Assembly: GCA_045598975.1 (NCBI GenBank)
Contig: JAZRVE010000062.1
Location: 18,815 to 82,814, forward strand
Reading direction: 5' to 3'
Source of the DNA: Eubacteriales bacterium
GTDB taxonomy: Bacteria > Bacillota > Clostridia > Oscillospirales > CAG-382
Length of the DNA: 64,000 bases
Of the stretch, positions 2,786-64,000 are shown piece after piece; position 1 is the first letter of the stretch, and every line of letters starts with the position of its first letter. Position numbers and translations under genes: made by a program. The notes below the pieces were generated by a model. The model saw only the letters and a list, made by a program, of their open reading frames with translations, was not told the origin of the DNA and did no database searches.

Positions 2786-4636
2786 TCAGAATGATTGTCG
2801 GACTTCGTCGGGAAGACCGACGGGAATGGTGTCATGCGCGGAGGCGGTAGGAGAAGCAATGCCGAGAGAGGCAATGAGAAAGATGAGCGTCAGCAGGCAA
2901 GGATCGGCTGTGACGTTGCAGAAAAAGCCGGCGATCATGGCGGAAACCAAAGCCGAAAAGAGAACGGCGGTGCGCTTTCTGACCTGTTTCGGAAGATCGG
3001 GGGAAACGGAAAAAACAAGAGAGCGAAGCGGAAGTACGAAAAAGGCGAGCAACACGGCGATAAAAAGGGGAAGCCCGAAGATCCACATTAAGGAGGCGTA
3101 GGTGTTGCTGTTGGATAAAGTCGCAAACGGCGTGATGCCGATGCCGGTAAGAAGAACGGAGACCGAATCGAGCCCCGACATATCGGCAAACACCGGAATG
3201 GAGGGGTCTTCAAAAACGGAAAGTAAGAAGGTCTGCGTCTGTGAAAAGAGGTTTTCGGGAATAAAATAACGAACGGAAAAGCCGATAAGAACGAGAGAGA
3301 GAAGGATGAGCCATCCGCGTCTGTTGAAGAAGAGGAGATACACGGCATAGGCAATAAGCACCGACAGATAGGCGTATCCGGTATGCAGAAAGAGCATATC
3401 GAAAACAAGGAAAAACGTGGAAAACAGCGGCAGAAGCGCCATGTTATAATGCGAATGCGAGAAAAAGAGGGGCAAAAGCAGACAAAGATAAGCCGCGGTG
3501 TCGGCACCGGAACGCATAGCGGGAAAGGAAAGGGACGGCAGGGCGGGGAGAAGATCCGCCATGAGAAGAGTGGAAAGCAGATCCCACGCGCAGACAAGAG
3601 AGAGCAGAAAAGCGGATAAAGACAGCATACGCATACATTTTTTGCTCATGTCGGTGGAGCGTACGAGAGAGAGGACGCATATGCCGGCAAGCACGGCGGA
3701 AACGGTTTCCAGCATGGGGAAGAGCGGCAGATGACGGTAGGAAACAAAGCAGGCGAGCAAAACGGCGGTAAGAAGAAAGAACAGAAGGATCATGGAAAAA
3801 GAAAGCGGAAACGCACGTTTTGCACGGAGTACCTTGAAAAGGTAGGAAAAGAAAGTCAAGAAACTGAGCAGACAAAGCCATCTGACATCGAGAAACGGAG
3901 TAAAAAAGCAAAGGAGCAGGACGCCGTTTTCGGGGTGCGTGATAACGAGATAAAAGACGAATACGGCGGCGAGCGTCAGAAGCACGGGCTTTGGCGAGAC
4001 GACGTAGGAAAACACGCCGCACAGAAGACCGAAAATAAGGGAAAATTCCGTCGTCATGCGAACGGGCAGAGCGCTTGCCTTTTCAATGTCGTTGATGCGG
4101 AAAAGGGAGTCGGAGAAGGGTGAGAAAAAGGAACTGCCGCGTATGAGAGAGGCAAGGCTGATTTGGGAAAACGGGAGCATGAACAGCGACAGGATGACGA
4201 GAAACAGAGAGAAAATAAAGGAATCGCTGAATTGCAGATGACGGAGACGGTCAAAACCGTTGAGAAGATTGGCGGAAAGGATAAAAAGCCCGAAGCTTAA
4301 AAAATAGATGCCGAAGGAACGGAGGCTTGACGAAAAGAAACGAAGGCTTGCCACATGAAAGCGGGAGACGAGAAAACTGTTTTCCGATCTTTCGGCAAAA
4401 GCGAGTTTGAAAGAAAGTTTTTGCCGATAAAAGGCGGGATGCTCGGTCAGAACCGAAGAAAGAAACGATTTTCCGAAAAGGGATTCGGCGCGGCTGTCGC
4501 GAAAAAGAAAAGAAAGAATGCGGCTGGAAGAAACAAGCGAAGAGAATATGCCGGTAAATTTCTTTCCCCAATGGGAAAAGCGCGCTTTCCGCGCTTCCGG
4601 AGAAAACAGAGAGGCTTTATGCAAAACCGTCACCAC
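2786..4636 (-). CDS. Large polytopic integral membrane protein, possibly O-antigen-ligase/Wzy_C-like (tentative)
   Basis: 616-aa ORF dominated by hydrophobic segments (more than 10 predicted TM by eye, rich in L/F/S). It sits immediately upstream, in the same orientation, of the two anchored paralogs. The start is uncertain (GTG at 4636 or TTG at 4627). Confidence 0.5.
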   Translation of the reverse strand: MVTVLHKASLFSPEARKARFSHWGKKFTGIFSSLVSSSRILSFLFRDSRAESLFGKSFLSSVLTEHPAFYRQKLSFKLAFAERSENSFLVSRFHVASLRFFSSSLRSFGIYFLSFGLFILSANLLNGFDRLRHLQFSDSFIFSLFLVILSLFMLPFSQISLASLIRGSSFFSPFSDSLFRINDIEKASALPVRMTTEFSLIFGLLCGVFSYVVSPKPVLLTLAAVFVFYLVITHPENGVLLLCFFTPFLDVRWLCLLSFLTFFSYLFKVLRAKRAFPLSFSMILLFFLLTAVLLACFVSYRHLPLFPMLETVSAVLAGICVLSLVRSTDMSKKCMRMLSLSAFLLSLVCAWDLLSTLLMADLLPALPSLSFPAMRSGADTAAYLCLLLPLFFSHSHYNMALLPLFSTFFLVFDMLFLHTGYAYLSVLIAYAVYLLFFNRRGWLILLSLVLIGFSVRYFIPENLFSQTQTFLLSVFEDPSIPVFADMSGLDSVSVLLTGIGITPFATLSNSNTYASLMWIFGLPLFIAVLLAFFVLPLRSLVFSVSPDLPKQVRKRTAVLFSALVSAMIAGFFCNVTADPCLLTLIFLIASLGIASPTASAHDTIPVGLPDEVRQSF

Positions 4637-4664
4637 CTTTTTTGAAAAATCGGGAAAATCGGGA

Positions 4665-5405
4665 TCATTCGGCGCCGTCTAAACGCAGGCTTTCGAGGTA
4701 CAGAATATCTTCGCGGGTAAGAGGGGCATCGTTCAGCAGATCGGGACGGCATTGCCGCGTCTTTTCAAGAGCGGCACGCCTCTGCCACAGAAGAATGTCT
4801 TTGTGATTGCCGTTCTGCAATACCTCCGGCACGCACATGCCTTCGTAAACGGCGGGCTTTGTGTATTGCGGATGTTCGAGAAGCCCGGAAGCGATGCTTT
4901 CGTTTTCGTAGCATTCGCTGTCGGGCAGAACGCCGTCTATCAGCCGGGAGACCGTGTCGATGAGAACGGCGCAGGGCAGTTCGCCGCCGGTGAGAACGAA
5001 ATCGCCGATGGAGATTTCCTCGTCCACTACCGATTCGATGACGCGCTCGTCGATGCCCTCATAGTGTCCGCAAAGTAGGATGAGCGTGTCATACGAACGC
5101 AGTTCCAGCGCTTTTTTGTGAGAAAAAACGGTGCCGCGCGGGGAAAAGTAAATCGTCCGTACCTTTCCCTCGGCGTCTGCGGATGCCGCTTTGTGACAGT
5201 CGAGAAGCGGCTGAGGCGCCATGATCATGCCGTAGCCGCCGCCGTAGGGCGTGTCGTCCACCCGACGGTGCTTGTCAAGGGAATAGTCGCGTATGTTGTA
5301 GTAATCCACCCGGATATGCCCGGCGCTCTGCGCCCGCCCGAGGATGCTGGCATCGGTGTAGGGCTTAATGACTTCCGGAAACAGCGTCAGCACTTTGAAA
5401 ATCAT
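4665..5405 (-). CDS. trmD: tRNA (guanine37-N1)-methyltransferase
   Basis: 'MIFKVLTLFPEVI...DDTPYGGGYGMIM...ICGHYEGIDERV...SIGDFVLTGGELPA'-type TrmD signature. Its start overlaps the rimM stop by 4 nt. Confidence 0.93.
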   Translation of the reverse strand: MIFKVLTLFPEVIKPYTDASILGRAQSAGHIRVDYYNIRDYSLDKHRRVDDTPYGGGYGMIMAPQPLLDCHKAASADAEGKVRTIYFSPRGTVFSHKKALELRSYDTLILLCGHYEGIDERVIESVVDEEISIGDFVLTGGELPCAVLIDTVSRLIDGVLPDSECYENESIASGLLEHPQYTKPAVYEGMCVPEVLQNGNHKDILLWQRRAALEKTRQCRPDLLNDAPLTREDILYLESLRLDGAE

Positions 5406-5920
5406 CGGATCTCCTCCGCTTGATCGAACATGCCGGCGATGGGGCGCACGGCGATGCCTTTTTCCGTATCGACGGCTATGATAAACTCTTTCACGGCGGG
5501 AACGAAGTATTCGTTTTTGCCGTCGGATATAGCGTAAATGTCCGACGCACCGCGGTTGAAGACCTCTTTTACTTTTCCGTATACGGTTCCGGTATCGGTA
5601 TCATAGACCGGAAGCCCGATAAGATCGTCGATAAACACACTGCCTTCCGTAAGCGGAAGATCGCCGCGGTCGGCGTACAGCACGCGGCCGCGGAGCGCGT
5701 CTGCCTGCTCGGGGGTAGAAACGCCTTCAAGAAGCAGATAGCCGCAGCCCTTGTACACCTTTGCGGAAAGCACGGCGCGTCCGTCTTTTCCCGCCGGGTC
5801 AAGGTACAGTTTTTTCAAGGCGCAGAGCGCCTGCGGCGTGTCGCAGTAGGTTTCGACTTTGAGCTCGCCTTTTATGCCGCGTTTGTTGATGATTTTTCCG
5901 GCTTCGAGATATTGTTTCAT
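5402..5920 (-). CDS. rimM: 16S rRNA processing protein RimM
   Basis: 'MKQYLEAGKIINKRGIKGELKV' is a typical RimM N-terminus, and a PRC-barrel-like C-terminus follows. I trimmed the 259-aa ORF to the ATG at 5920. The upstream extension is a P/S/R-rich shadow that overlaps the FkbM gene. Confidence 0.88.
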   Translation of the reverse strand: MKQYLEAGKIINKRGIKGELKVETYCDTPQALCALKKLYLDPAGKDGRAVLSAKVYKGCGYLLLEGVSTPEQADALRGRVLYADRGDLPLTEGSVFIDDLIGLPVYDTDTGTVYGKVKEVFNRGASDIYAISDGKNEYFVPAVKEFIIAVDTEKGIAVRPIAGMFDQAEEIR

Positions 5921-5936
5921 GCGGAATCCTTTCCGG

Positions 5937-7037
5937 TCATCGGCGGGATGGCGCGATATAGACGTTGGCGTCCCAGCCGGGAATATAAGGAAAATGACGG
6001 ATATACAGTGAAAAACCGTCTTCGTAGAGGGACGTGAGGAAGCTCGGCAAAGCAAACAGATCTTCCACGCGGTGATAGACGGCACAGCCGACGACGGGGC
6101 GGGAGGCGCGGATAGTCCCGGCAAGCCCACGCACGACGGCAAGATCGGCGCCCTCGGCGTCGATTTTGATGTAATCGGCACGCAGGTCTGTGGCGGAATC
6201 GGCGGGGTACGCGGGGATGAGCGTTACCTTTTCGCCGGCGTGCGACGTGGTATGGGCGCTTGCGCGTCCCGAACGCGCGTAGAACGAAAGCGTCTCCTCT
6301 TTGTCCCACGCGGCGGCGTTGTGAAGAGAGATATCGGATATCCCGAGTTCTTTCGCCGTTTGCCGCAATTTTTTGAAATTGCGTGCATCCGGCTCGAAGC
6401 AGACAGCGGAAATATCTTGTCCGGCAAAGGAAACGTATTCCCGCAAGGTGTCGCCGTTGTAAGCGCCGATGTCGACGTACCTGTCGCCGCCCTTCGGACG
6501 GATGACGGTGTGATAGACTTCCGCGACGTCAGTTTCGCAGTCTTTGAGGTAGTCGATCTTTCCGGTGATCTTGTGCGCGATAAGATCAAGATAGGCACGG
6601 CGCGACAGATCGTCGGAGAGGGTATCGTAAACCGAGCGGAAAAGCGCGGCATTGTTCAAAAAATAGGATTTGTCAAATATTCCCTGTCCGAAGACCGGAA
6701 CATCCGGCGCGTATAGCTCGTCGGTTTCATTAAGATTATATATGCTTTTCATGACGTTGTCAAGTCGTGTGGCAAAAGAGACGAGAATGATACACTTGCC
6801 GAGTGAGCGCCGGAGTGTCGCGTAGTCCGTGAGATCAAAACCGTGAAAGGTCTTGTGCCTCACGAAGCCGTCGCTTGCAAAGACGCCGGAAATGCGGATA
6901 TTCTTGCTTTCACAGACGGCGAGAATCTTGTCGGCACCGTCGCCCATGCCGTAGAGAACGATGGGCTTGTCGGCGTTTTGCAGATGTTCCCACAGATCGG
7001 GCAGATTCGACAGCTCGTCGAAATTCCGTAAAAGCAT
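5937..7037 (-). CDS. FkbM-family SAM-dependent methyltransferase
   Basis: 'YVDIGAYNGDTLREY...CFEPDARNFKKL...YIKIDAEGADLAVVRG' matches FkbM-type methyltransferase motifs. The start was moved to the ATG at 7037, preceded by 'aggag'. Confidence 0.75.
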   Translation of the reverse strand: MLLRNFDELSNLPDLWEHLQNADKPIVLYGMGDGADKILAVCESKNIRISGVFASDGFVRHKTFHGFDLTDYATLRRSLGKCIILVSFATRLDNVMKSIYNLNETDELYAPDVPVFGQGIFDKSYFLNNAALFRSVYDTLSDDLSRRAYLDLIAHKITGKIDYLKDCETDVAEVYHTVIRPKGGDRYVDIGAYNGDTLREYVSFAGQDISAVCFEPDARNFKKLRQTAKELGISDISLHNAAAWDKEETLSFYARSGRASAHTTSHAGEKVTLIPAYPADSATDLRADYIKIDAEGADLAVVRGLAGTIRASRPVVGCAVYHRVEDLFALPSFLTSLYEDGFSLYIRHFPYIPGWDANVYIAPSRR

Positions 7038-7261: not shown

Positions 7262-10033
7262 ATGAAAAGATGGCTTTCGGTGTGCCTTGCTTTGCTGTTT
7301 GTTCTTGCGCCCGCCGTTCCCGCGGCGGAGACAGAAGCGATTGCGGAAGCAACGGCGGCAGAAAATGCCGTGCGAACGGGATACAGTGTGACGTATCCGC
7401 TTTCGGACGGACTCACCTTGACACGGAATATCTGTGAATCGCCGTCGGACGGCCCCGAACGTACCTATCTTTTGGAATATACGCCCGGTGCCGGAACGCA
7501 ATTGTCTTTTGTGACGGGCGAAAAACTCAGGAAGCCCGCGACGATCGCCTCTCTTGCGGCGGTGAATTTTCCCGACAGACGCTTTGTCGCCGGCATCAAC
7601 GCCGATTTCTTCAATATGTCCACCGGTGTGCCGGAATCGGCGCTTGTCATTGACGGAAGGCTCTATACGAGCGACCGCGGCGGATATTGCCTTGTCAAAA
7701 AGGCGGACGGTACATACGAATTTGCAAAGCCGCAGATAAGCCTTGTCCTGACCGATGAAAAGGAAACGGCGTATACCGTTCTTTCGCTCAATAAAGAATT
7801 CACGCAGTACGGACTGTACCTGTATGACTCGAATTTTGCCGTTTATACCAACGTTTTCACCTCTAACACCACCGCCGTGCTCCGTGCTTACGAGGACGTG
7901 CTTTCGTGGGAGGAGATGTGTGCGCGTTTTCCGGAGACCGTGCAGAGCGTGACGGAAGAATTTGACGCCGAAATGCAGGCACAGCCGCAGACCGAGCCGC
8001 CGACCGAAACGGCTGAGGATGCGCCGGAAGAAGTGCCGGAGATCACCGAAGAAGAGCGCGAGCGCATACGGGAAGAAACGGAACGGAACGTGCAGGCGGA
8101 ACGCGAAAAACGCGTTGCGGCGGCGCTGGAAAAGCAATCGGGCTATACCCGGATCGGGGAAGATTTTTATCTTCTTGCCGAGGTCTGCCCGAGGATCGGT
8201 CAGCCGGAAAAGCTTGTGGTATGCCACGTCAACGCCGACGCCGGAAGCGCCGCGATCCGTGATGGTGCTTATATGCTCTGCGCCGATAATTCCTCTTACG
8301 GATACCTTATCATGGCCATGTACCCGGGTGAGCGTCTGACGCTCGATATCCGTGCGGATGAAGCCTTTGCCGACGTTACCGACGCCGTCGGAACGGGAGC
8401 CGTCATCGTGCACGAGGCAAAGGCGCTCGATGACCGGAACCTTTCGCATTATACCACGCTCCAACCGCGCTCTGCGGTCGGCATCAAGGAAGACGGCACG
8501 CTCGTTTTCTGCGCCGTCGACGGCAGACGGAAGGGTGTCAGTGTGGGCATGAAGATTTTGACGCTCGGTGAATATCTGGTTTCGCTCGGCTGTGTGGAGG
8601 CGGCGAACTTTGACGGCGGCGGCTCGACGGCGGTGCGGGCATTTCTGCCGGCGGGAGATAAGAATACCCTTGTCAATAAGCCGTCCGAGGGGAGTGAACG
8701 CGCCGTTTCGACGGCGGTCGTCTTTACGGATACGCGCAAAAGGAGCGAAACGCCTGCCGCCGCTGACGCCTACTTTTTCGGCGACGCCTACGTGACCTAC
8801 AACGACTGTCCCATAGAGCTCGGTGCATACGCACTGTCCGATGAGAACGGTTTTTCCGTCGCGGAGAATGAGCAGGAGCCCGTGAACGTCTCGCTGTATG
8901 CGGAAGACGGTATCGTGGCGGATAACGTGTACTATCCGCTCGGCGCCGTCGGGTTTATCCCGGTGTACGCGCTTGTCGGGAATGAAAAAGAGGGCAACAC
9001 GGCAACGACGGTCGTTTCTCTTGCCGAGCCGGACAGCATTAACATCACCGTGGGGCAGAACACCATAAAACCGTTTGAATCAACGAGCGTTTCCGTCGGC
9101 TCTCTCTTTTGCGGTCTGCCGGTAGGGGATCTGCCGACGAGCTACCTTTGGCGTATTGCGCCCACCAAAGATGAAGATGATGAAAACAATGAAAACGTGA
9201 CGGAAGAAGACGGACAGACGACCGTTACCCGCGGTGAAACGGGGGACGTCGTCATCGAAAGCGAATACGGCGTTATCCGTGACGGCATTTTTGTGCCGAA
9301 AATTGACGGCGTGACGCTGTCCGTATCGGCGTCACGCGGCGAAAAGAAAGCGGAAGCTCGGATATTTGTCAAGCCGTATCCGTTTGCCGACATGAAAGGG
9401 CATTGGGCGGAAAAAGAGATATTTTCGCTTGCCGAAGCGGGCGTCGTCAACGGGGAACTCGACGAAAACGGGGTGGCGTTCTATCTGCCCGAGCGCACCT
9501 ATTCGCGCCATGAATTTTTCACCATGCTGTGGCGGCTGACGGACATCGGGGACGAGACGGATTTTGCATGGCAGACGGAAGAGATCATACCAGAGCCGAC
9601 GGAAGACGGTGAAGAGACTGTTCCGGAGGAGGAAACGGAGCCGGTACGGCGTTTCACCGATCTTGCGGATGCCGATGAAGTGCCGGATTGGGCATTTGAA
9701 GCGGCGGTGCATCTGTATCAGAACGGGCTTCTCGATGCGGTACTGCATACGGACGGGGAGGGCGCCGTGATACTCGACGGGGATGCGCCCGTCACGCGCG
9801 CCGAGGTCATCGACGTCATGGGGCGTGTCTGCCGCGCGGCACCGGCGGACTACGTAAGCGAGCCGTATGCCGATCTTACGCCGGAACAGGCGGACGATCC
9901 GTTTATTAAAAATGCGCTGTATGCCGGTATTTTCTCCGGGTACGAGGATAAAACACTGCGGCTCGACCGCTTTCTGTCCCGTGCCGAAGCGGCGGCTGTG
10001 TTCGCGAGGCTGTCGGGGGTATTTAAAAAATAA
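7262..10033 (+). CDS. Secreted phosphodiester glycosidase (DUF2233/NAGPA-like) with three C-terminal SLH domains
   Basis: Signal peptide 'MKRWLSVCLALLFVLAPAVPAAE'. 'ANFDGGGSTA' is the phosphodiester-glycosidase hallmark. The C-terminal SLH repeats are 'FADMKGHWAEKEIFSLAEAGVVNG', 'FTDLADADEVPDWAFEAAVHLYQNGLL' and 'YADLTPEQADDPFIKNALYAGIFSGY'. Confidence 0.8.
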   Translation: MKRWLSVCLALLFVLAPAVPAAETEAIAEATAAENAVRTGYSVTYPLSDGLTLTRNICESPSDGPERTYLLEYTPGAGTQLSFVTGEKLRKPATIASLAAVNFPDRRFVAGINADFFNMSTGVPESALVIDGRLYTSDRGGYCLVKKADGTYEFAKPQISLVLTDEKETAYTVLSLNKEFTQYGLYLYDSNFAVYTNVFTSNTTAVLRAYEDVLSWEEMCARFPETVQSVTEEFDAEMQAQPQTEPPTETAEDAPEEVPEITEEERERIREETERNVQAEREKRVAAALEKQSGYTRIGEDFYLLAEVCPRIGQPEKLVVCHVNADAGSAAIRDGAYMLCADNSSYGYLIMAMYPGERLTLDIRADEAFADVTDAVGTGAVIVHEAKALDDRNLSHYTTLQPRSAVGIKEDGTLVFCAVDGRRKGVSVGMKILTLGEYLVSLGCVEAANFDGGGSTAVRAFLPAGDKNTLVNKPSEGSERAVSTAVVFTDTRKRSETPAAADAYFFGDAYVTYNDCPIELGAYALSDENGFSVAENEQEPVNVSLYAEDGIVADNVYYPLGAVGFIPVYALVGNEKEGNTATTVVSLAEPDSINITVGQNTIKPFESTSVSVGSLFCGLPVGDLPTSYLWRIAPTKDEDDENNENVTEEDGQTTVTRGETGDVVIESEYGVIRDGIFVPKIDGVTLSVSASRGEKKAEARIFVKPYPFADMKGHWAEKEIFSLAEAGVVNGELDENGVAFYLPERTYSRHEFFTMLWRLTDIGDETDFAWQTEEIIPEPTEDGEETVPEEETEPVRRFTDLADADEVPDWAFEAAVHLYQNGLLDAVLHTDGEGAVILDGDAPVTRAEVIDVMGRVCRAAPADYVSEPYADLTPEQADDPFIKNALYAGIFSGYEDKTLRLDRFLSRAEAAAVFARLSGVFKK

Positions 10034-10157
10034 CAGCGGCATTTGTAAAATTTTATCGTTCGGAAAAAAGTTGCGGCTAAACTCTTGCCAAAACGCGGGT
10101 TTTGTGCTACAATAAACCATCCCTGTACCACATTTTACGGAAAAGGATATTCTGAAT

Positions 10158-11975
10158 ATGTCTGACAGCCCCAAGGATCTCTCACTCATCCGCAATTTCT
10201 GTATCATTGCGCACATCGACCACGGAAAATCGACGCTTGCCGACCGGATATTGGAAAAAACCAACACGGTGGCGCTTCGCGAATCCAAGGATCAGATGCT
10301 CGACGATATGGAGCTCGAACGGGAGCGCGGGATCACCATCAAGGCGCGAGCCGTCAAAATGAATTTTACGCATGAAGGCGTGACGTATGATTTCAATCTC
10401 ATCGACACGCCCGGTCACGTTGACTTTAATTACGAGGTGTCCCGCTCACTCAAAGCCTGTGAGGGGGCGCTTCTTGTCGTGGACGCCACGCAGGGCATCG
10501 AGGCGCAGACGCTTGCCAACGCCTATCTTGCCGTAGATAACGATCTGGAGATCTTGCCCGTCATCAATAAGATCGACCTGCCTTCCGCCGACATCGAGGG
10601 TACCCGCAAGGAGATCGAGGATGTCATCGGTATTCCCGCCGAGGACGCGCCTGCGGTTTCCGCCAAGGCGGGAACCAATATCGAGGAACTGCTCGTGCAG
10701 ATCGTCAAGCAGATTCCGCCGCCGAAGGGCGATGCGGCGTCGCCGCTCAAAGCGCTTATCTTCGATTCCTATTACGATTCTTACCGCGGTGTCGTCGTGT
10801 ATATCCGCGTCTATGACGGCAGGATCAAGGCGGGCGACAGGGTACGCATGATGTCGACCGGCGTCGATTATGAGGTGACGGAGGTCGGTTTTCTCGATCC
10901 GTTCGGACTGCATGCCTGCGGAAGCCTTGACGCGGGCGAGGTCGGCTATTTTACCGCCGCCATCAAAACGGTTGGCGACACGCGGGTAGGTGATACCGTA
11001 ACGGGTGCGGAAAATCCGGTAGAAGCACCGCTTCCCGGCTTCAAGAGAGCGCTCCCCGTCGTGTTCAGCGGCATTTATCCCGCGGACGGCGCCCGCTACG
11101 GCGACCTGCGGGACGCTTTGGAAAAGTTGGCGCTCAACGACGCGGCACTCACCTATGAGCCGGAAACGTCCGTTGCGCTCGGCTTCGGGTTCCGATGCGG
11201 CTTTTTGGGACTCCTCCATATGGAAATTCTCGAAGAACGCCTGGAACGCGAGTTCAATCTCGATCTTATCACCACGGCGCCGAGCGTTATTTATAAAATC
11301 CGGATGCGCTCGGGAGAAGAGTATTATATCGACAACCCGACCAAATTCCCGGTCGGCGACGACGTGGAGACTGTCAGCGAGCCGGTCGTGAAGGCAAACA
11401 TCCTCTGCCCGACGGAATTTGTCGGCGGCATCATGGAGCTGTGCCAGGATCGGCGCGGCGTGTATAAGGATATGACGTATCTTGACGCCGGACGGGCGGA
11501 GCTTCACTATATCCTGCCGCTCAACGAGATCGTGTATGACTTTTTCGATGCCCTCAAATCCAAGAGTAAGGGCTATGCCTCCCTCGACTACGATTTAGAC
11601 GGATATCAGCCGTCGAAGCTTGTCAAGCTGGACATTCTTCTCAACGGAGAAATGGTAGATGCGCTTTCGTTCATCGTCCACACCGACAAGGCGTACGGAC
11701 GGGCACGCAAGATCGTGGAAAAATTAAAGGACAATATCCCGCGACAGTTGTTTGAAATACCCATTCAGGCGGCGATCGGCGGCAAGATCATCGCACGCGA
11801 GACGGTCAAAGCGCTCCGAAAGGACGTGCTTGCCAAGTGCTACGGCGGCGATATCACCCGTAAGAAGAAACTGCTTGAAAAGCAGAAGGAAGGCAAAAAG
11901 CGTATGCGCTCGCTCGGCAGTGTCGAAGTGCCGCAGGAGGCGTTTATGGCTGTGCTCAAATTTGACGAAGAATAG
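10158..11975 (+). CDS. lepA: Translation elongation factor 4 (LepA/EF4)
   Basis: '[20 protein letters not shown]', 'DTPGHVDF' and 'NKIDL' are GTPase motifs. The LepA-specific C-terminus reads '[23 protein letters not shown]'. Confidence 0.97.
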
Positions 11976-11989
11976 GAAATGGATTCTGT

Positions 11990-13162
11990 ATGAAGACGTT
12001 GGGGTTATATCTGCATATTCCGTTTTGTATGCAGAAGTGCCGCTATTGTGATTTTTATTCCCTTGCCGGGTGCTCGGCTGCCGACAAGGATGCCTACGTG
12101 CAGACGCTTTGCGCGCATATGCGGGAGTATAAATTGCAGGCGAAGAACTATACCGTGATGTCTGTATATCTCGGCGGCGGTACGCCGTCCTTGCTCTCGG
12201 CGGACGAACTGAAAATGCTGATGCGTCATGTTCGCGCATCGTTTCGTCTGCATCCCGATGCCGAGATCACCATGGAGGCGAATCCCGGCACGGTGGACGA
12301 GCAGAAATTGAAAGCCTTTCGTCGGTGCGGCGTCAATCGTATCAGCATCGGCGTGCAGTCCTTTCATGACGAAGACCTTTCGATCAGCGGGAGGATACAT
12401 ACGGCAAAAGAGGGATACGAGGCGATCATCGCCGCCAGAAAAGCCGGCTTTGACAATATCAGTATCGACCTCATGTTCGGGCTTCCCGGGCAGTCGCTCC
12501 AGACCGTGACGGACAACGTCAACACGGCGGCGTCGCTGGAAGTGGATCACGTTTCGCTGTACGGGCTGAAAATCGAAGAGGGGACGCCTTTCTGGTTTGA
12601 CAGAGCGTCGCTGGCTTTTCCCGACGAAGAGACCGAGCGCACCATGTATTATACCGCCTGCGGACTGCTCGAAACATATGGCTATAAGCAGTATGAGATT
12701 TCCAATTTTGCGAAAACCGGTAAAAAATGCCGCCATAATCTCCGGTATTGGAATACCGAGGAATATCTCGGCTTCGGACCGGCGGCGCACTCCTATTTCG
12801 GCGGCAAGCGGTTTTCCTTCAAACGGAACCTGCCGTTGTACCTCGATTCGTTCGATCCGGAAAAAACGGTATCGGAGCCTCTCATCGACGAATATATCGA
12901 CATTCCGTATCCGTCTCGCGTGGCGGAATACGTCATGCTGCGGATGCGCCTCAACGCGGGCGTTGACTGCGAGGCGTTCTATAAGCGCTTCGGACGTCGG
13001 TTCGACGAGATTTATGCCGAACGGCTGAAACCGTTCATAAAAAGCGGGCACGTCGTCAGAACGGCGAAAGGGTACGCCTTTTCACCGGAGGGACGGTACG
13101 TCTCCAATTATATCTTGGCGCGCGTGGTGGATTTTGATTTGGTCGTACCGGGTGCGCAGTAA
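11990..13162 (+). CDS. hemW: Radical SAM heme chaperone HemW (HemN-like, oxygen-independent coproporphyrinogen oxidase family)
   Basis: 'LYLHIPFCMQKCRYCDF' contains the CxxxCxxC radical-SAM cluster motif. The position directly after lepA is the conserved Firmicute arrangement. Confidence 0.9.
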   Translation: MKTLGLYLHIPFCMQKCRYCDFYSLAGCSAADKDAYVQTLCAHMREYKLQAKNYTVMSVYLGGGTPSLLSADELKMLMRHVRASFRLHPDAEITMEANPGTVDEQKLKAFRRCGVNRISIGVQSFHDEDLSISGRIHTAKEGYEAIIAARKAGFDNISIDLMFGLPGQSLQTVTDNVNTAASLEVDHVSLYGLKIEEGTPFWFDRASLAFPDEETERTMYYTACGLLETYGYKQYEISNFAKTGKKCRHNLRYWNTEEYLGFGPAAHSYFGGKRFSFKRNLPLYLDSFDPEKTVSEPLIDEYIDIPYPSRVAEYVMLRMRLNAGVDCEAFYKRFGRRFDEIYAERLKPFIKSGHVVRTAKGYAFSPEGRYVSNYILARVVDFDLVVPGAQ

Positions 13163-13173
13163 GGAGAATGCTT

Positions 13174-13842
13174 ATGAAAAAAACGGCTCTGCTTGCCGCG
13201 GTCCTTGTTGTCATGACCTTTGTCTTCGGCGGCTGTAATGCCAAAAAAGAACAGCCGGAGAATGACGGGCATGAGATGCCGGAGGAAACGTCGGCACAGC
13301 AGTCTTTGGAGCAGGCGATGCGGCAGGATAACGTATCGTGTGTCGTCAATCTTGCCTGTCCTTCCTCGTTTGCCGGCTCCGGAACGGTCGGAGCATGGAA
13401 AAAACTGTTTGATACCACGGCACTGCCGAGCGCTTACGATTGCCTGACGTATATGAGCGAAGAAGAGATCGTTTCCGATCTTCTTGACGGCAAGGTGGAT
13501 TTTGCTCTGCTCTCTCCCGATGCGGCGGCGGGATTATACCGCCGGAACGGCGATTTTTCGGCGCTTGCGGGAATGCTTGAATATGCGGATGAGGAAACGG
13601 CGGCGGAAATACTGCCGACGGTTTCCGGGCAGATGCATGAGGTCGTAACGGCGGCGGTTCTCGTTGCCGATCGAGCTGTTGCCGAAAGTAAGCCGGATGC
13701 ATACGCTTACGTGCTTGCCACCGCAAAAAGTACGGACGGCTTTCTGACGGGAGAAGCGTTCCGCTCGGCGTTTGAACTGTATTATGTCGGTTTGTATGCA
13801 TCACAGCCAGGTCTTGTGCCGTCGGGATCGTTTTATGATTGA
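13174..13842 (+). CDS. Lipoprotein of unknown function (possibly a solute-binding-like fold)
   Basis: Lipobox 'MTFVFGG|C' follows a hydrophobic signal sequence. The ATG at 13174 has better spacing to 'aaggag' (13161-13166) than the ORF-track start at 13168. Confidence 0.6.
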   Translation: MKKTALLAAVLVVMTFVFGGCNAKKEQPENDGHEMPEETSAQQSLEQAMRQDNVSCVVNLACPSSFAGSGTVGAWKKLFDTTALPSAYDCLTYMSEEEIVSDLLDGKVDFALLSPDAAAGLYRRNGDFSALAGMLEYADEETAAEILPTVSGQMHEVVTAAVLVADRAVAESKPDAYAYVLATAKSTDGFLTGEAFRSAFELYYVGLYASQPGLVPSGSFYD

Positions 13843-13881
13843 CAATTATAATTTTATATAAGAAAGTGCAGGAAAACAATC

Positions 13882-15558
13882 ATGGCTTATCTGACAGACA
13901 TTGAAATCGCACAGAACTGCAAAATGAAGCCCATCACGGAGATCGCCGCCAAAGCACACGTTGACGAGAAGTACCTCGAACAGTACGGACGCTATAAAGC
14001 AAAGGTCGATATGTCTCTTTTGAATGAGACCGACCGCAAGAACGGAAAACTCATCCTTGTTACGGCAATCACGCCGACTCCGGCGGGAGAGGGCAAGACC
14101 ACAACGACCATCGGACTTGCCGACGGACTTGCCCGCATCGGCAAAGACGTCACCGTCGCCCTTCGTGAGCCGTCGCTCGGACCGGTGTTCGGTGTCAAGG
14201 GCGGTGCCGCCGGCGGCGGTTACGCACAGGTCGTCCCGATGGAGGATATCAATCTGCATTTTACCGGTGACTTTCATGCCATCGGTGCCGCCAATAACCT
14301 GCTTGCGGCAATGCTCGACAACCATATCCAGCAGGGCAACGCGCTCGGTATCGACGTGCGTAAGATCACGTGGAAGCGCTGCGTGGATATGAACGACAGA
14401 CAGCTTCGTTTCCTCGTGGACGGTATGGGCGGCAAGGCTAACGGCGTTCCGCGTGAGGACGGCTTCGATATCACGGTGGCTTCCGAGATCATGGCTGTCT
14501 TCTGCCTGGCAAGCTCCATCACCGACTTGAAAGAACGCCTTGCCCGGATCATCGTCGGCTATACCTATGACGACAAGCCCGTCACCGCCGGAGATTTGAA
14601 AGCGGTCGGTGCCATGACCGCCTTGTTAAAGGATGCGCTGAAACCGAATTTGGTACAGACTCTGGAAGGCACCCCCGCCTTTGTACATGGCGGACCGTTT
14701 GCCAATATCGCACACGGGTGCAACTCGGTCATGGCGACGAAGCTGGCGCTCAAAATGGGTGACTACACCGTCACGGAGGCAGGCTTCGGTGCCGACCTCG
14801 GCGCCGAGAAATTCCTCGACATCAAATGCCGCATGGCAGGGCTCACGCCGAGCGCCGTGGTGGTCGTCGCAACGGTGCGCGCACTCAAAATGCACGGCGG
14901 ACTCGATAAGAAATCGCTCGGAACGGAAGATATCGCGGCGCTCGAAAAGGGCATCCCGAACCTCCTCCGTCACCTTTCCAACATCAAGAACGTCTATCAG
15001 CTTCCCTGCGTGGTAGCGGTCAACCGCTTCCCGACGGATACCGATAAGGAGATCGACTTCATCATCGCCAAGTGCCGCGAGCTCGGTGTCAACACCGTTC
15101 TCTCGACGGTCTGGGCGGACGGCGGCAAGGGCGGCGAAGACCTTGCCCGTGAGGTGGTGCGGCTGTGCGAAGAGGAAAAGGGCAACTTTACCTACTCCTA
15201 TGCGCTTGATATGAGCATTGAAGATAAGATCAAAGCTGTTGTCAAAAGAATTTACGGCGGTGACGGCATCACCATCATGCCGAACGCCAAGAAGCAGATC
15301 GAACGGCTGACCGAGCTCGGCTTTGACAAAGTTCCTGTCTGCATCGCCAAGACGCAATACAGCTTTTCCGACGATCCCGCGAAACTCGGCGCACCCGAGC
15401 ATTTCACCGTCACCGTCAAGAACGTCAAGATATCTGCCGGTGCCGGCTTCATCGTCGTGCTGACGGGCGATATCCTCACCATGCCCGGACTTCCCAAGTC
15501 CCCGGCGGCAGAACGGATCGACGTCGATGAAAACGGAAAGATTTCCGGTTTGTTCTGA
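13882..15558 (+). CDS. fhs: Formate-tetrahydrofolate ligase
   Basis: '[17 protein letters not shown]' P-loop, full length (558 aa) and overall FTHFS sequence. Confidence 0.96.
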
Positions 15559-58314: not shown

Positions 58315-58474
58315 GATGTCCTCCAAAAAATGAAAATTTCATGCTCTTCGCATAATAAGCGATTCTATTATAACACTCTTTTCCGAAAAATACAACTGTT
58401 TTTTTAGATTTTTGCGGGAATGTTTGTGTAAAAAATGAAAATCTCAAAAAAATAAAATTTTTTTCAAAAAACTA

Positions 58475-58503
58475 TGTACAAAAGCGAAAAGGTGTGATAT
58501 AAT
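58475..58503 (+). promoter_or_regulatory. Candidate promoter (extended -10) for the STAS / cNMP-binding genes
   Basis: TGTACA (58475-58480), 17 nt, TGaTATAAT (TATAAT at 58498-58503), in an extremely AT-rich spacer. Confidence 0.5.
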
Positions 58504-58542
58504 TTCCTTAATCATAAATATACGCTTGGAGGTATATCATAA

Positions 58543-58839
58543 ATGACGATCAATAAGACTCTCAACGGCTCTGCATTATTGCTTACTCTTGCAGGACGGA
58601 TCGACACAACGACTGCACCGCAGCTCGAAGAAGAACTCAATGCTTCTTACAGCGGCGTGAGTGATCTTGTGTTCGATTTTACGGACATTGAATACATATC
58701 TTCCGCCGGACTGCGTGTTCTGCTCGCGGCTCAGAAGGTCATGAACAAGCAGGGAAGCATGAAGCTCGTCAACGTAAAAGAAGAAGTCAAAGAGGTATTC
58801 GAAATCACCGGTTTCAGCGATATTCTGACAATTGAATGA
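58543..58839 (+). CDS. STAS-domain protein (anti-sigma-factor antagonist, SpoIIAA/RsbV-like)
   Basis: 'LLLTLAGRIDTTTAPQLEEEL...DFTDIEYISSAGLRVLLAAQK...EVFEITGFSDIL' carries the conserved phosphorylatable Ser in 'ISSAGL'. Confidence 0.88.
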   Translation: MTINKTLNGSALLLTLAGRIDTTTAPQLEEELNASYSGVSDLVFDFTDIEYISSAGLRVLLAAQKVMNKQGSMKLVNVKEEVKEVFEITGFSDILTIE

Positions 58840-58856
58840 TCGACGGAGGGGTCGCA

Positions 58857-59378
58857 ATGGAATTAAAAGTATTTGAAAAAGACGAAGTCATATTCTATGA
58901 GGGCGAATATCAGTCCTGCATGTATGACATCCATTCGGGAAAAGTGGCGATCTACGCCAACTTCGGCAAGAAGAACGAGGTTCTGTTGACGGAGCTTGCG
59001 CCCGGAAAACTGTTCGGTGAAATGGGCATGGTGGAAGCCAAGGTCAGATCGGCAACGGCTGTCGCCGTCGAAAAGACGGAAGTGTACCAGATCAACAACG
59101 ATACGTTTTCCGATTATTTCCGTGACCAGCCGGAAAAAGTCATCGCCATCCTGCAAAACATGAGCGGCAGACTGCGCGAGCTGTCCGGAGAATATCTTGA
59201 CGCCTGCAAGACGATTTCCGAATACGTGGAAGCGGAAAAGAACAATAAGCCGAAAGAACAGAGTCTTTTGGATAAGATCAAGAAGATCATCGGGATCGCC
59301 GAGGAATTAGACGTAAAATACGCGGAGTATTATAATTCCGTCTATACCTATGACTCCATGCACGGTTTTTACTATTGA
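58857..59378 (+). CDS. Stand-alone cyclic-nucleotide-binding domain protein (no HTH)
   Basis: 'LFGEMGMVEAKVRSATAVAVEKTEVYQI' is the cNMP phosphate-binding cassette (FGE...RSA). The C-terminal ~70 aa are helical, with no recognisable DNA-binding domain. The ATG at 58857 follows 'ggagggg'. Confidence 0.8.
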   Translation: MELKVFEKDEVIFYEGEYQSCMYDIHSGKVAIYANFGKKNEVLLTELAPGKLFGEMGMVEAKVRSATAVAVEKTEVYQINNDTFSDYFRDQPEKVIAILQNMSGRLRELSGEYLDACKTISEYVEAEKNNKPKEQSLLDKIKKIIGIAEELDVKYAEYYNSVYTYDSMHGFYY

Positions 59379-59417
59379 CGTCTGCGCCATTACGGAAGAA
59401 ACGGAGAAGAAGCTACT

Positions 59418-59876
59418 ATGACGGAAACGATAAATATCAAAAAAGGCACGGTCATCTTTTGTCAGGATGTTTTTGAGGAATGGATGTATGACATCCGCGA
59501 CGGAAAAGTCGGCATTTATAACGATTACGGCTTGGAAAGCGAAAAACTGCTTGTCACGCTCGGTGAAGATACCTTCATCGGTGAAATGGGGCTGATCGAA
59601 AAGAAGCCGCGTTCGGCAACGGCGGTGGCATTGCAGGATTGCACGCTCATCAAAATCACGGCGGAAAGCTTTTCCGATTATCTCAGAGAGCGCCCCGGCA
59701 AGGTACTGACGATCATGCAGCATACCAGTTCCCGTATTCGTGAATTAACGGCGGATTATGTCAGCGCGAGTGCCGCGATCGCCGAATACGTCAAGAATCA
59801 GGAACTCGGCGAGCCACAGAGCGAGGAACTTTTGAAGCGTATGAGAAAAATAGCCGACGACAGCAAAAATCACTGA
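59418..59876 (+). CDS. Stand-alone cyclic-nucleotide-binding domain protein, paralog of 58857..59378
   Basis: 'FIGEMGLIEKKPRSATAVALQDCTLIKI'. It shares the post-domain helix with the neighbour: 'SSRIRELTADYVSASAAIAEYV' versus 'SGRLRELSGEYLDACKTISEYV'. Confidence 0.8.
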   Translation: MTETINIKKGTVIFCQDVFEEWMYDIRDGKVGIYNDYGLESEKLLVTLGEDTFIGEMGLIEKKPRSATAVALQDCTLIKITAESFSDYLRERPGKVLTIMQHTSSRIRELTADYVSASAAIAEYVKNQELGEPQSEELLKRMRKIADDSKNH

Positions 59877-60017
59877 AAAACGTGTTTGAAAAACTGTATT
59901 CGGCAAATGTGAGCGGAGCGGAATATACAGTATTCCACTCCGCCTCTTTTCAGGTGCTGACGGGGAAAGACACCGATACCTGCGGAAATTATTATACTAT
60001 TATATCGAGGGATGAGA

Positions 60018-61412
60018 ATGGAACATCAGGAATTTGTCAATGAAGGCATTATCCGTGATATGTCCGAAGGCATACTGTATATTGCCTTCAACGGGGAAAT
60101 ATGCTCGGTAAACCCTGCGGCACTTTCCATTCTGGAACGGGAGCGGGACGAACTGCTCGGTATGAGCTTCGCCCGGTGCTTTTTTGAATATGAAGAAAAC
60201 GACGCCTTCAATCAGATGGTGTTGGATGCCGTCTATGACCGCGAAAAAACGCATGAGGGATACGTTTCCTATTATACGGGAAAGGTCACCAAGCAGCTTC
60301 GCCTTACTACGTCGTTTTTGACGGAAAAAACGCAGAAGATCGGTATCATCGTCGTTATCAGCGACATCACCGAGCTTTCCGAACTGCGTGACGCCGTGAA
60401 AGCCATGGAAAGGATCCGCGCACTCAACAGCAAGCTCGAGCTTCGCAATAAGCTGTTGTCCGAGACCTTCGGTCGGTTCCTTTCTGATGAGATCGTCCGT
60501 CAGCTTCTTGAAACGCCGGACGGACTGACGCTCGGCGGAAAGAAGCACACTATCACCGTCATGATGAGCGATCTGCGCGGCTTTACGGCAATGAGCGAAC
60601 GCATGAATCCGCAGGACCTCATCACCATGCTCAATCATTATCTCGCGGAAATGACGGACGTCATCGAAGCGCATAACGGTACGATCATCGAGTTTCTCGG
60701 AGACGGTATTCTTGCCATATTCGGAGCCCCGGTATTCACGCAGACGCACGCCGGCGACGCCGTTCATACGGCCGTCGTCATGCAGAGCAGAATGGAAGCC
60801 GTCAACGAATGGAACAAACAGCAGGGATATCCGATTCTGGAAATGGGGATCGGCATCAATACCGGCGAGACCATTGTCGGCAACATCGGCTCCGAAAAAC
60901 GTACCAAGTACGGTGTCATCGGAAGCAACGTCAATCTCTGCGGCCGTATCGAAAGCTACACGGTCGGCGGTCAGGTGCTCATTTCGCCTACGACCGTCGC
61001 ACAGATCGAAGAATCCTCCGAGTCCTTGAACATCATCGCCAAGATGAGCGTTTTCCCGAAAGGGGTAGACCACTCGTTGGAACTGTCGTCTGTCGCGGGT
61101 ATCGGAACGGACACCTGCCCGGTTTTCTCGGAAGAGCCGGAGCCGTTAAAAACGCCGGTCACCGTGCCGTTTTCCGTTGTGGAGGGCAAGCACGGCAACG
61201 ACCGGATGACGGACGGAACGGTGGTGGCGCTTTCGGAAAACACGGCTATTCTGCAAACAGAGCTTGCACTGAACGTGTACGATAATCTGCAATTCGATAT
61301 CGGGGCAAAGCTGTTTGCCAAGGTGCTCGAAAAGCGGGAGAACGGGTATTATCTTCGCTTTACCGCGAAACCGGTCTGCTTCGACGCATGGTTCGGTGAA
61401 AAAACGCATTAA
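60018..61412 (+). CDS. PAS-domain class III adenylate/guanylate cyclase with an extra ~130-aa C-terminal domain
   Basis: PAS-like 'GILYIAFNGEICSVNPAALSILERERDELLGMSF'. Cyclase motifs are 'TVMMSDLRGFT', 'EFLGDGILAIFGAP', 'GINTGETIVGNIGS' and 'YGVIGSNVNLCGRIES'. The ATG at 60018 has better RBS spacing than 60012. Confidence 0.85.
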   Translation: MEHQEFVNEGIIRDMSEGILYIAFNGEICSVNPAALSILERERDELLGMSFARCFFEYEENDAFNQMVLDAVYDREKTHEGYVSYYTGKVTKQLRLTTSFLTEKTQKIGIIVVISDITELSELRDAVKAMERIRALNSKLELRNKLLSETFGRFLSDEIVRQLLETPDGLTLGGKKHTITVMMSDLRGFTAMSERMNPQDLITMLNHYLAEMTDVIEAHNGTIIEFLGDGILAIFGAPVFTQTHAGDAVHTAVVMQSRMEAVNEWNKQQGYPILEMGIGINTGETIVGNIGSEKRTKYGVIGSNVNLCGRIESYTVGGQVLISPTTVAQIEESSESLNIIAKMSVFPKGVDHSLELSSVAGIGTDTCPVFSEEPEPLKTPVTVPFSVVEGKHGNDRMTDGTVVALSENTAILQTELALNVYDNLQFDIGAKLFAKVLEKRENGYYLRFTAKPVCFDAWFGEKTH

Positions 61413-63874: not shown

Positions 63875-63901
63875 AAAAGCACCCCGACGGGGTGCTTTTT
63901 T
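63875..63901. terminator. Rho-independent terminator after the PHP gene
   Basis: 'aaaagcacccc-gac-ggggtgctttttt'. Confidence 0.8.
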
Positions 63902-63918: not shown

Positions 63919-64000
63919 TTACTGTTTGCGGTATTCAAAATCCAGCATGGTGACATCATCGAATTGCGTGGCACCCTTTTCGAATGTGTGCAATTCCTCA
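63919..64000 (-). CDS. 3' end (26 codons) of a gene entering from the right edge; possibly a PP2C/SpoIIE-type phosphatase C-terminus (very tentative)
   Basis: My translation of the minus strand gives '...EELHTFEKGATQFDDVTMLDFEYRKQ*', with stop TAA at 63921-63919. 'DDVTML' resembles the last metal-binding Asp motif of PP2C/SpoIIE domains. It is not in the ORF track. Confidence 0.35.
   Translation of the reverse strand, partial: EELHTFEKGATQFDDVTMLDFEYRKQ

Follow-up and report, generated by a model that had tools for sequence, protein, structure and literature searches.

The window analysed here is a 64,000-nucleotide (nt) stretch of contig JAZRVE010000062.1 (GenBank assembly GCA_045598975.1, an Eubacteriales bacterium). 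It carries a cluster of four plus-strand open reading frames (ORFs) encoding a STAS protein, two paralogous cyclic nucleotide-binding (CNB) proteins, termed CNB1 and CNB2, and a PAS-class III nucleotidyl cyclase (Table 1). The window was scored with Pfam and NCBIfam/TIGR models and with hidden Markov models (HMMs) made from the proteins of related loci, and the four ORFs and their intact motifs were confirmed. The cluster is probably a chromosomal second-messenger module for a cyclic mononucleotide (cNMP), of a kind kept in gut and rumen anaerobes. Directly observed are the domains and their intact motifs, the synteny and gene fusions among relatives, and the resemblance of the cyclase to Cya2; a literature search found no paper on this family of CNB pairs and cyclases.

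Table 1. Features of the cluster and its downstream flank, in window positions.
Feature	Position	Strand	Evidence and remarks
Promoter-like site TGTACA-17-TATAAT with extended TG	58475..58503	+	Consensus scan, 10/12 matches; consensus match only
STAS/anti-sigma-factor antagonist, 98 aa	58543..58839	+	PF01740 E=2.9e-19; TIGR00377 E=9e-23
CNB1, 173 aa	58857..59378	+	PF00027 E=6.6e-21; cassette G54-E55 ... R64-S65-A66
CNB2, paralog, 152 aa	59418..59876	+	PF00027 E=1.2e-17; cassette G55-E56 ... R65-S66-A67
Hairpin GAGCGGAGCGGAAUAU-ACA-GUAUUCCACUCCGCCUC, then UUUU	59911..59950	+	Between CNB2 and cyclase
PAS-class III nucleotidyl cyclase with C-terminal domain, 464-466 aa	60018..61412	+	Likelier start 60018; ATG also at 60012
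PHP-family metal phosphoesterase, 272 aa	63044..63862	+	PF02811 E=8e-9; between cyclase and PP2C
Probable SpoIIE/PP2C-type phosphatase, 3' end, last 26 codons and stop	63919..64000	-	Convergent with cluster; 2.5 kb downstream of cyclase; leaves window

The phosphate-binding cassettes (GEMG...RSA) are intact in both CNB proteins (GEMGMVEAKVRSA in CNB1, GEMGLIEKKPRSA in CNB2), which have a common C-helix motif (RLRELSGEYLDACKTISEYV and RIRELTADYVSASAAIAEYV, respectively) and are 42% identical. In the AlphaFold2 model of CNB1 (mean pLDDT 81), a confident β-barrel (residues 1-80, barrel pLDDT >90) is followed by a long C-helix (92-128) where CRP has its dimerisation helix, by a second, less confident helix (135-168) and by an aromatic C-terminal tail. 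The top Foldseek matches to this model were solely the CNB portions of CRP, GlxR and Bd1971. Neither Pfam nor NCBIfam detected a helix-turn-helix (HTH) in CNB1 or CNB2, and the CNB1 model shows only two helices past the barrel. Even at E<=10, Pfam found nothing in the CNB1 tail and only a spurious sub-threshold UBact match in the CNB2 tail. Because they have no HTH, the two proteins are not CRP-family transcription factors. CNB2 is without the conserved Cys and the aromatic tail that CNB1 has, and it forms a distinct ortholog group in a neighbour-joining (NJ) tree. In the alignment of the family, G-E...R-x-A-T-A-V-A, Arg105 and Arg107 are invariant, and Tyr113 and Cys117 nearly so.

An earlier note on this DNA, made from the letters alone, had described the intact cassettes and the common helix, the lack of an HTH or other effector domain, the complete metal Asp and Asn/Arg residues of the cyclase, and a STAS stop codon overlapping the first CNB ORF. 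All of these descriptions hold, the overlap being that of TGA 58837-58839 with an in-frame ATG at 58836. The note had also given the CNB proteins 174 and 152 residues. The second length stands; for CNB1, the ATG at 58857 is likelier than the alternative start at 58836, because GGAGG precedes it by 8 nt, and the protein then has 173 residues.

A scan with a 12-sequence alignment, taking one genome per species, gave 79 loci. The counts below refer to a set of 64 (L007-L068, L074 and L078), close relatives from rumen and gut metagenome-assembled genomes (MAGs), whose ORFs were scored with HMMs built in this analysis. The set covers Oscillospiraceae, Lachnospiraceae, Acutalibacteraceae, Christensenellales and Coriobacteriia, with a few Sphaerochaetaceae, Selenomonadaceae and Anaerolineaceae, and relatives in the genome and metagenome scans were at most 53% identical. 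Exactly two CNB units, as adjacent genes or in tandem, are present at about 55 of the 64 loci, one at about eight and three at a single locus; at about 20, fused tandem proteins of ~300-340 aa are found. In the NJ tree the CNB units fall into two paralog types, each of them kept from species to species and in the fused forms. A cyclase lies within 1.5 kb of the CNB genes at 41 of these species-level loci, and this adjacency, with the CNB fusions, bears out the proposal that the cyclase and the CNB pair are one functional unit.

A profile search (E<=1e-20) extended the family to more than 3600 cluster representatives. The best 120 were all tandem proteins, 119 of them with PF00027 as the only domain, and one tandem CNB protein comes from the cultured isolate Butyrivibrio sp. 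CB08 (GCA_003625485.1). The model of a tandem member (pLDDT 86, pTM 0.76) shows two barrels, each with a long C-helix, and a disordered linker between them. From the fixed pairing, the gene fusion and the retained CRP-type helix we infer a single heteromeric receptor made up of CNB1 and CNB2.

Two side observations concern the same family. Some MAGs hold two separate CNB-pair loci each (L023/L041, L024/L051, L029/L037 and L036/L039), showing that the module can be duplicated. The sole candidate output domain seen in the family is a C-terminal extension of ~115 aa on the second CNB unit with a weak ParB_N/sulfiredoxin-like match (LNGHHRW), found in one subclade (L017:639-1481, L024:10227-11081 and L055:4453-5310); at L055 this CNB gene is followed by a HAMP-PP2C gene.

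The cyclase comprises a PAS domain (residues ~12-123; Pfam E=2.5e-8), a catalytic domain (~174-366; Guanylate_cyc E=5.3e-27) and a conserved C-terminal domain (~377-460). Its best PDB match is Cya2, a bacterial guanylyl cyclase of solved structure (2W01; E=1.3e-54), the next being the adenylyl cyclase CyaB (1e-28). It is 52% identical to Cya2 over 189 aa and keeps all eight listed Cya2 active-site residues (here D187, R189, E227, D231, G301, N308, R312 and K350). The metal aspartates and the transition-state pair, D187, D231, N308 and R312, align with D448, D492, N569 and R573 of Cya2 (residue list in PMC6005667), and the base-specifying residues E227 (IIEFLGDG) and G301 (KYGVIG) correspond to Cya2 E488/G562. 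The specificity of Cya2 rests on this Glu-Gly pair, where adenylyl cyclases have Lys-Asp/Thr (PMC6005667, PMC4215837), and the E488K substitution turns Cya2 into an adenylyl cyclase (PMC5995499). Among the PAS-cyclases of 429-572 aa at CNB loci, the window enzyme not being counted, 32 of 33 have the same pair. Given a Cya2-like domain with a Glu-Gly pair, cGMP is about as likely a product as cAMP, or more so, and cAMP as the assumed product becomes doubtful.

Three observations make the product uncertain. The NLTYR motif of Cya2 reads NLCGR here, so that the Tyr before the transition-state Arg is replaced by Gly (G311); this Tyr enhances the guanylyl cyclase activity of Cya2 (PMC4215837). The position is Gly in the 32 PAS-cyclases with the Glu-Gly pair and Ser or Ala in the remaining aligned cyclases. 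Short cyclases beside orthologous CNB proteins in Coriobacteriia have E/D/G-Asp pairs. On the receptor side, the residue aligned with Ser128 of CRP is Ser in CNB1 and Thr in CNB2, as in cAMP-binding CRPs (PMC11224242). Ser128 is the residue of CRP that contacts adenine; a cUMP receptor has Asn at this position, and the cGMP-specific XC_0249 has Glu (PMC11224242); Clr binds both nucleotides through Thr residues (PMC10187061). Ser or Thr would thus be compatible with either cAMP or cGMP, and the receptor sequence does not settle the ligand. Apicomplexan PKG ranked highest in the profile search; this rank comes from adding up several domains and was set aside as a guide to the ligand. Judged from sequence, then, cGMP has about an even chance of being the product; cAMP is possible, with a smaller probability, and some other or mixed product would be distinctly unlikely.

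The C-terminal domain of the cyclase (61140-61391, ~90 aa) has no Pfam match at E<=10. A search for it among 1.84 billion proteins gave 88 representatives; in all eight of the longer members scanned with Pfam it sits behind a class III cyclase domain, and some of the short matches are probably gene fragments. A guess that the domain is PilZ-like found no support and was abandoned.

Genes for possible messenger-degrading enzymes recur at these loci. Of the 64, 15 have an AP_endonuc_2 TIM barrel and another 15 an MBL-fold hydrolase within 2 kb, 30 loci in all. In many species the TIM-barrel gene stands between the CNB genes and the cyclase (L004:6836-7603, L010:2152-3003, L086:9180-9971 and 12 other loci), and its best NCBIfam matches, both sub-threshold, are the cobamide-remodelling phosphodiesterase CbiR and endonuclease IV. 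Two natural AP_endonuc_2-cyclase fusions (P0193 and P0213) have the TIM barrel N-terminal to a Cya2-like cyclase. The MBL-fold hydrolase takes the same position in Coriobacteriia and some Clostridia (L059:10490-11287, L012:5247-6044 and 12 other loci); among NCBIfam models it scores best, at a sub-threshold 61 bits, against 'cyclic nucleotide-degrading phosphodiesterase'. The cyclase at the MBL loci is short (~255 aa), lacks a PAS domain and carries E/D/G-Asp specificity pairs. These matches and positions make the TIM-barrel and MBL proteins candidate cNMP phosphodiesterases and suggest that many species have a full synthesis-receptor-degradation module; alternatively, the TIM barrel may serve as a sensor.

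Neither protein is encoded in the window. The PHP-family phosphoesterase found there might, speculatively, substitute for them, and we list it only as a candidate phosphodiesterase because the modules of relatives carry a different phosphoesterase. No PHP homolog was found in any related locus, and the idea that PHP is a recurrent module member was set aside as speculation. At L086, a calcineurin-like phosphoesterase (Metallophos, 13371-14030) occupies the place equivalent to that of PHP in the window; different phosphoesterase folds recur around CNB/cyclase modules.

We then considered how the STAS gene relates to the receptor and the cyclase. The STAS protein scores 80 bits against TIGR00377 (anti-sigma factor antagonist), above the cut-off of 53, and its Ser54 (YISSAGL) aligns in PDB alignments with the phosphorylated Ser58 of SpoIIAA and with Ser56 of RsbV. 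The promoter-like site sits 40 nt 5' of its start, and the gene layout predicts one transcription unit for STAS, CNB1 and CNB2. The hairpin between CNB2 and the cyclase, which the earlier note does not mention, is a possible partial terminator or attenuator: the RNA fold of 59877-60011 has a free energy of -37.1 kcal/mol (z=-2.6), no Rfam family matched the hairpin, and a consensus scan placed a weak promoter-like site 3' of it. Given the hairpin and its short U-run, the cyclase may share transcripts with STAS, CNB1 and CNB2 only in part. The 216-nt leader or intergenic region ahead of STAS (58327-58542) is AT-rich, with long A and T runs. A regulatory RNA in the leader and intergenic regions was considered and rejected, the sole Rfam match there being a chance, sub-threshold miRNA (29.6 bits against a threshold of 60).

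At the right edge of the window, the partial gene that the earlier note had called PP2C-like encodes a C-terminus (translation ...EELHTFEKGATQFDDVTMLDFEYRKQ, ending ...QFDDVTMLDFEYRKQ before the stop) that matches those of SpoIIE/PP2C phosphatases linked to CNB loci (e.g. QFDDVTMLGFKYSG and QFDDLTMLCVEYKG), a comparison that covers only the 26 PP2C residues inside the window. HMMs derived from relatives found no RsbW/HATPase_c_2, second STAS or PP2C domain among the window ORFs, in agreement with the same note's statement that an anti-sigma kinase is absent. As a partner switch the cluster is incomplete within the window, which has no kinase and just a piece of the phosphatase gene. Relatives carry an RsbW-like kinase in the set, so its absence from the window is probably an edge effect.

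Such a kinase adjoins the module at L001, L004, L014, L043, L045 and L091. The gene order is STAS - CNB(s) - TIM barrel - PAS-cyclase - HATPase_c_2 (RsbW-like) - SpoIIE/PP2C at L001 and L004, CNB-CNB - PP2C::RsbW fusion - STAS at L014, tandem CNB - cyclase - STAS - PP2C::RsbW at L043 and L045, and PP2C::RsbW - STAS - cyclase - ABC transporter - tandem CNB at L091. A PP2C gene is adjacent or convergent at L053, L055 and L086, in the last case convergent and 2.7 kb downstream of the cyclase. The linked STAS proteins of other species are orthologous to that of the window (98-99 aa, 53-67% identical, all with YISSAGLRV), and the PP2C proteins of relatives carry membrane or HAMP sensor domains of their own. 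As side observations, two STAS-APH (aminoglycoside-phosphotransferase-like kinase) fusions (4090-5268 and 13294-14439) and a Y_phosphatase3 gene (5335-6225) flank the module at L001. At L091, which is widely sampled, RelA/SpoT- and HD_4-domain genes (1-2546) precede the block of partner-switch and cyclase genes, and the tandem CNB gene is followed by genes for a GAF-ABC ATPase and an FtsX-type permease (9875-14284).

From these data we infer a scheme for the cyclase product, the CNB heterodimer, the STAS contact and the way in which the signal runs. The messenger would be made by a Cya2-type class III cyclase under PAS control and bound by the two paralogous CNB proteins, each predicted to have a CRP-like barrel and a long C-helix and no DNA-binding or enzymatic domain. 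CNB1 and CNB2 would form a heterodimeric receptor joined via the C-helices, as a fused tandem in many species, and would signal to a partner protein by protein-protein contact. The receptor genes are predicted to be co-transcribed with that of a phosphorylatable STAS protein, and a PP2C gene lies nearby, so the module is probably wired to a partner switch. The phosphorylation state of STAS, set by PP2C and an RsbW-like kinase, would then gate the cyclase, in the order seen in SiaABCD and HsbA-HsbD.

This order, with STAS acting on the cyclase, is slightly favoured by analogy over one in which the CNB proteins act on STAS, because the known second-messenger partner switches act on the cyclase (PMC8457831). 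For a signal passing from CNB to STAS, as the earlier note had envisaged, we found no support, and the known precedents run the opposite way (PMC8457831). In that alternative, the nucleotide-loaded CNB pair would bind STAS (or PP2C, or the RsbW-like kinase) and set the switch, the output being whatever the RsbW-like protein sequesters. It would give an output to CNB proteins that have none of their own, and it fits the translational coupling of STAS to CNB1, the STAS gene directly upstream of the CNB genes at L001, L004 and L010, and the PP2C gene directly after them at L014 and L055. However, STAS abuts the cyclase rather than CNB at L091, L043 and L045, the PP2C proteins have their own membrane or HAMP sensors, and the literature search found no precedent of a CNB protein regulating a STAS switch. 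Most species, moreover, have the CNB pair and the cyclase with no switch gene nearby, so that the CNB pair must have another target. We therefore regard a switch set by the CNB pair as rather unlikely.

The link to a partner switch as a whole faces objections too. A STAS or PP2C gene lies within 3 kb at only 8 of the 64 species-level loci. The enrichment is modest. STAS occurs at 6 loci within 2.5 kb, compared with 2 of 517 ORFs in the background, and PP2C at 5 loci within 3 kb, compared with 3 of 517; the background ORFs come from the outer flanks of these loci. Separate transcription of CNB2 and the cyclase is suggested by the hairpin that lies between them. The window shows neither an RsbW-like kinase nor a sigma factor; for the sigma factor this refers to genes next to the cluster in the annotated neighbourhoods of the window, L001, L004, L090 and L091, the whole window not having been scanned with a sigma-factor model. 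Nor did sequence searches or structure models identify an output for the CNB pair. The proximity of switch genes could reflect the clustering of signalling genes and not a direct connection.

Taken further, these points lead to a reading in which the CNB/cyclase module is self-contained and STAS and PP2C belong to an independent switch that happens to lie nearby. Besides the small number of associated loci and the weak enrichment, it can draw on STAS proteins of the 98-aa type found 5-9 kb away or elsewhere, and on the BrnQ and PHP genes that separate the window PP2C from the cluster. Yet at least five gene orders, from different families, show the association, some of them with tight, operon-like spacing or stop-start overlap, and it involves the same STAS ortholog group every time. 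A lack of any direct coupling thus seems somewhat unlikely to us, and we retain STAS-dependent gating of the cyclase as the slightly preferred reading. Partner-switch genes are, in any case, an accessory of the module and not its general output. The tie to a partner switch proposed in the earlier note is plausible in view of relatives with the full gene set, but it does not extend to a general output, the switch genes flanking the module in about one-eighth of species. Likewise, conservation of the neighbourhood is seen for the CNB pair with the cyclase at most of the loci, and for STAS or PP2C at few of them.

The cluster is preceded by an AraC-type regulator gene, an acidic membrane protein gene and a polysaccharide biosynthesis region of ~30 kb, and followed by a BrnQ-type branched-chain amino acid carrier gene (minus strand), PHP and the convergent PP2C gene. 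This context bears on a further explanation, that of a Pycsar/Pucsar-type antiphage system in which a cyclase activated by infection works with CNB-domain effectors. Against PycC models the cyclase does reach E=7.9e-21 at best, PycTIR models match the CNB proteins with their CNB part, and a recent preprint reports 'Pucsar' cyclases that make cGMP and act with CNB-TIR and CNB-TM effectors. The PADLOC matches are, however, limited to the shared cyclase and CNB folds, and they are weaker than those to Pfam Guanylate_cyc and to Cya2. No TIR, transmembrane or other toxic domain was found in the CNB proteins, a PAS sensor is part of the cyclase, the neighbours are housekeeping and polysaccharide genes and not defence genes, and the module is kept together with phosphodiesterase-like and partner-switch genes. 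An antiphage function was rejected for want of an effector domain and a defence context; we hold it to be extremely improbable.

LepA encoded in the window is 84% identical to proteins from Clostridia and Clostridiales MAGs. Two further features of the flanks were recorded. The polysaccharide region (25170-56188) encodes glycosyltransferases, UDP-sugar dehydrogenases, a flippase-like protein and a GDP-mannose/GDP-fucose pathway, and contains a stretch of lower GC (0.42-0.47) at ~36-48 kb. A GC-rich hairpin, AAAAGCACCCCGTCGGGGTGCTTTT (63875-63899), lies between the convergent PHP and PP2C genes, where it could act as a bidirectional terminator.

To our knowledge, cyclic mononucleotide signalling is nearly unexplored in Clostridia, and we know of only a handful of bona fide bacterial cGMP signalling systems. 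The cluster and its relatives offer a Cya2-like cyclase with candidate receptors encoded alongside, one of the relatives being from a cultured Butyrivibrio isolate. For the receptor family, with its thousands of sequence clusters, current annotation goes no further than 'cyclic nucleotide-binding domain-containing protein' or wrongly names Crp/Fnr regulators. The binding target of the output-less CNB pair would reveal how a cNMP adaptor works, by analogy with the single-domain PilZ adaptors for c-di-GMP, and the TIM-barrel and MBL proteins may turn out to be new cNMP phosphodiesterases. If the STAS/PP2C/RsbW link is true, partner-switch control would extend from diguanylate to class III cyclases; if cGMP, CNB adaptors and a partner switch all go together, the module would be the first case of a class III cyclase tied to such a switch. 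The most complete version, in which gut and rumen Clostridia and Coriobacteriia use cGMP as a true second messenger with a Cya2-type PAS cyclase, a new class of heterodimeric or tandem CNB adaptors that lack catalytic and DNA-binding domains, a hitherto unrecognised family of TIM-barrel phosphodiesterases and a coupled STAS/RsbW/PP2C switch, is unlikely to hold in all its parts.

The closest known enzyme, Cya2 of Synechocystis PCC 6803, shares with the window cyclase the catalytic domain, the Glu-Gly pair, the metal Asp residues, the Asn/Arg pair and the supporting Arg and Lys. Cya2 also has an uncharacterised extension after its catalytic domain (PMC5995499), to which the ~90 aa domain of the window cyclase may correspond. 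The two differ in that Cya2 has a membrane CHASE2 sensor and a Tyr by the transition-state Arg, where the window enzyme has a cytoplasmic PAS domain and a Gly. Furthermore, the cyclase here has two CNB genes beside it, while Cya2 has no known cGMP receptor (PMC10187061).

A cyclase gene clustered with that of a CNB receptor, the latter with an E...R(S/T) cassette, is also found in GcyB/GcyC-CgrA of Rhodospirillum centenum, XC_0250-XC_0249 of Xanthomonas campestris and the dual-specificity Clr system of Sinorhizobium meliloti (PMC10187061, PMC11224242). The receptors CgrA and Clr carry an HTH, which CNB1 and CNB2 do not. XC_0249 carries a GGDEF domain. The cluster described here departs from all three in having two paralogous receptors, no output domain and a Gram-positive anaerobe as host. 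CbpA of Pseudomonas aeruginosa (Endoh & Engel 2009, cited in PMC11139211) is a cAMP-binding protein with CNB domains only and no recognisable effector domain; it is reportedly a tandem CNB protein, with one degenerate domain, that localises to the cell pole when bound to cAMP. Beyond the CNB fold no specific relationship to our proteins, in which both cassettes are intact, is detectable, and CbpA is not known to be linked to a cyclase or STAS gene.

SiaA/B/C-SiaD, HptB-HsbR-HsbA-HsbD and BgrSTUWV-BgrR likewise encode, beside a second-messenger cyclase, a phosphatase of the PP2C family, a kinase of the RsbW type and a small antagonist that can be phosphorylated, and the best NCBIfam match of the PP2C protein at L004 is SiaA. 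In these systems the unphosphorylated antagonists SiaC, HsbA and BgrV bind and activate the diguanylate cyclases SiaD, HsbD and BgrR (PMC8457831). Their cyclases are GGDEF diguanylate cyclases, whereas that of the window is a class III mononucleotide cyclase whose link to a switch is predicted; SiaC, in addition, is a DUF1987 protein and not a canonical STAS protein.

The tandem CNB-A/CNB-B domains of PKA-R and PKG resemble the fused relatives in that two CNB domains act together, and the fused proteins presumably regulate a bound partner. However, a PKA-R-like tandem was rejected because the CNB-A/CNB-B packing does not superpose: Foldseek hits of the tandem model to PKA-R/PKG have TM 0.26-0.36 and root-mean-square deviations of 12-21 Å. 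Each unit here has a CRP-type long C-helix, and there is no kinase partner or inhibitor sequence. Pycsar/Pucsar systems also combine a class III-like cyclase with a CNB-domain protein, but there CNB is fused to a TIR or transmembrane killing domain, whereas here the cyclase has a PAS domain and the context is one of housekeeping genes. The module thus appears to operate like the known cNMP modules that pair a cyclase with a CNB receptor, and it differs from them in its output-less receptor pair.

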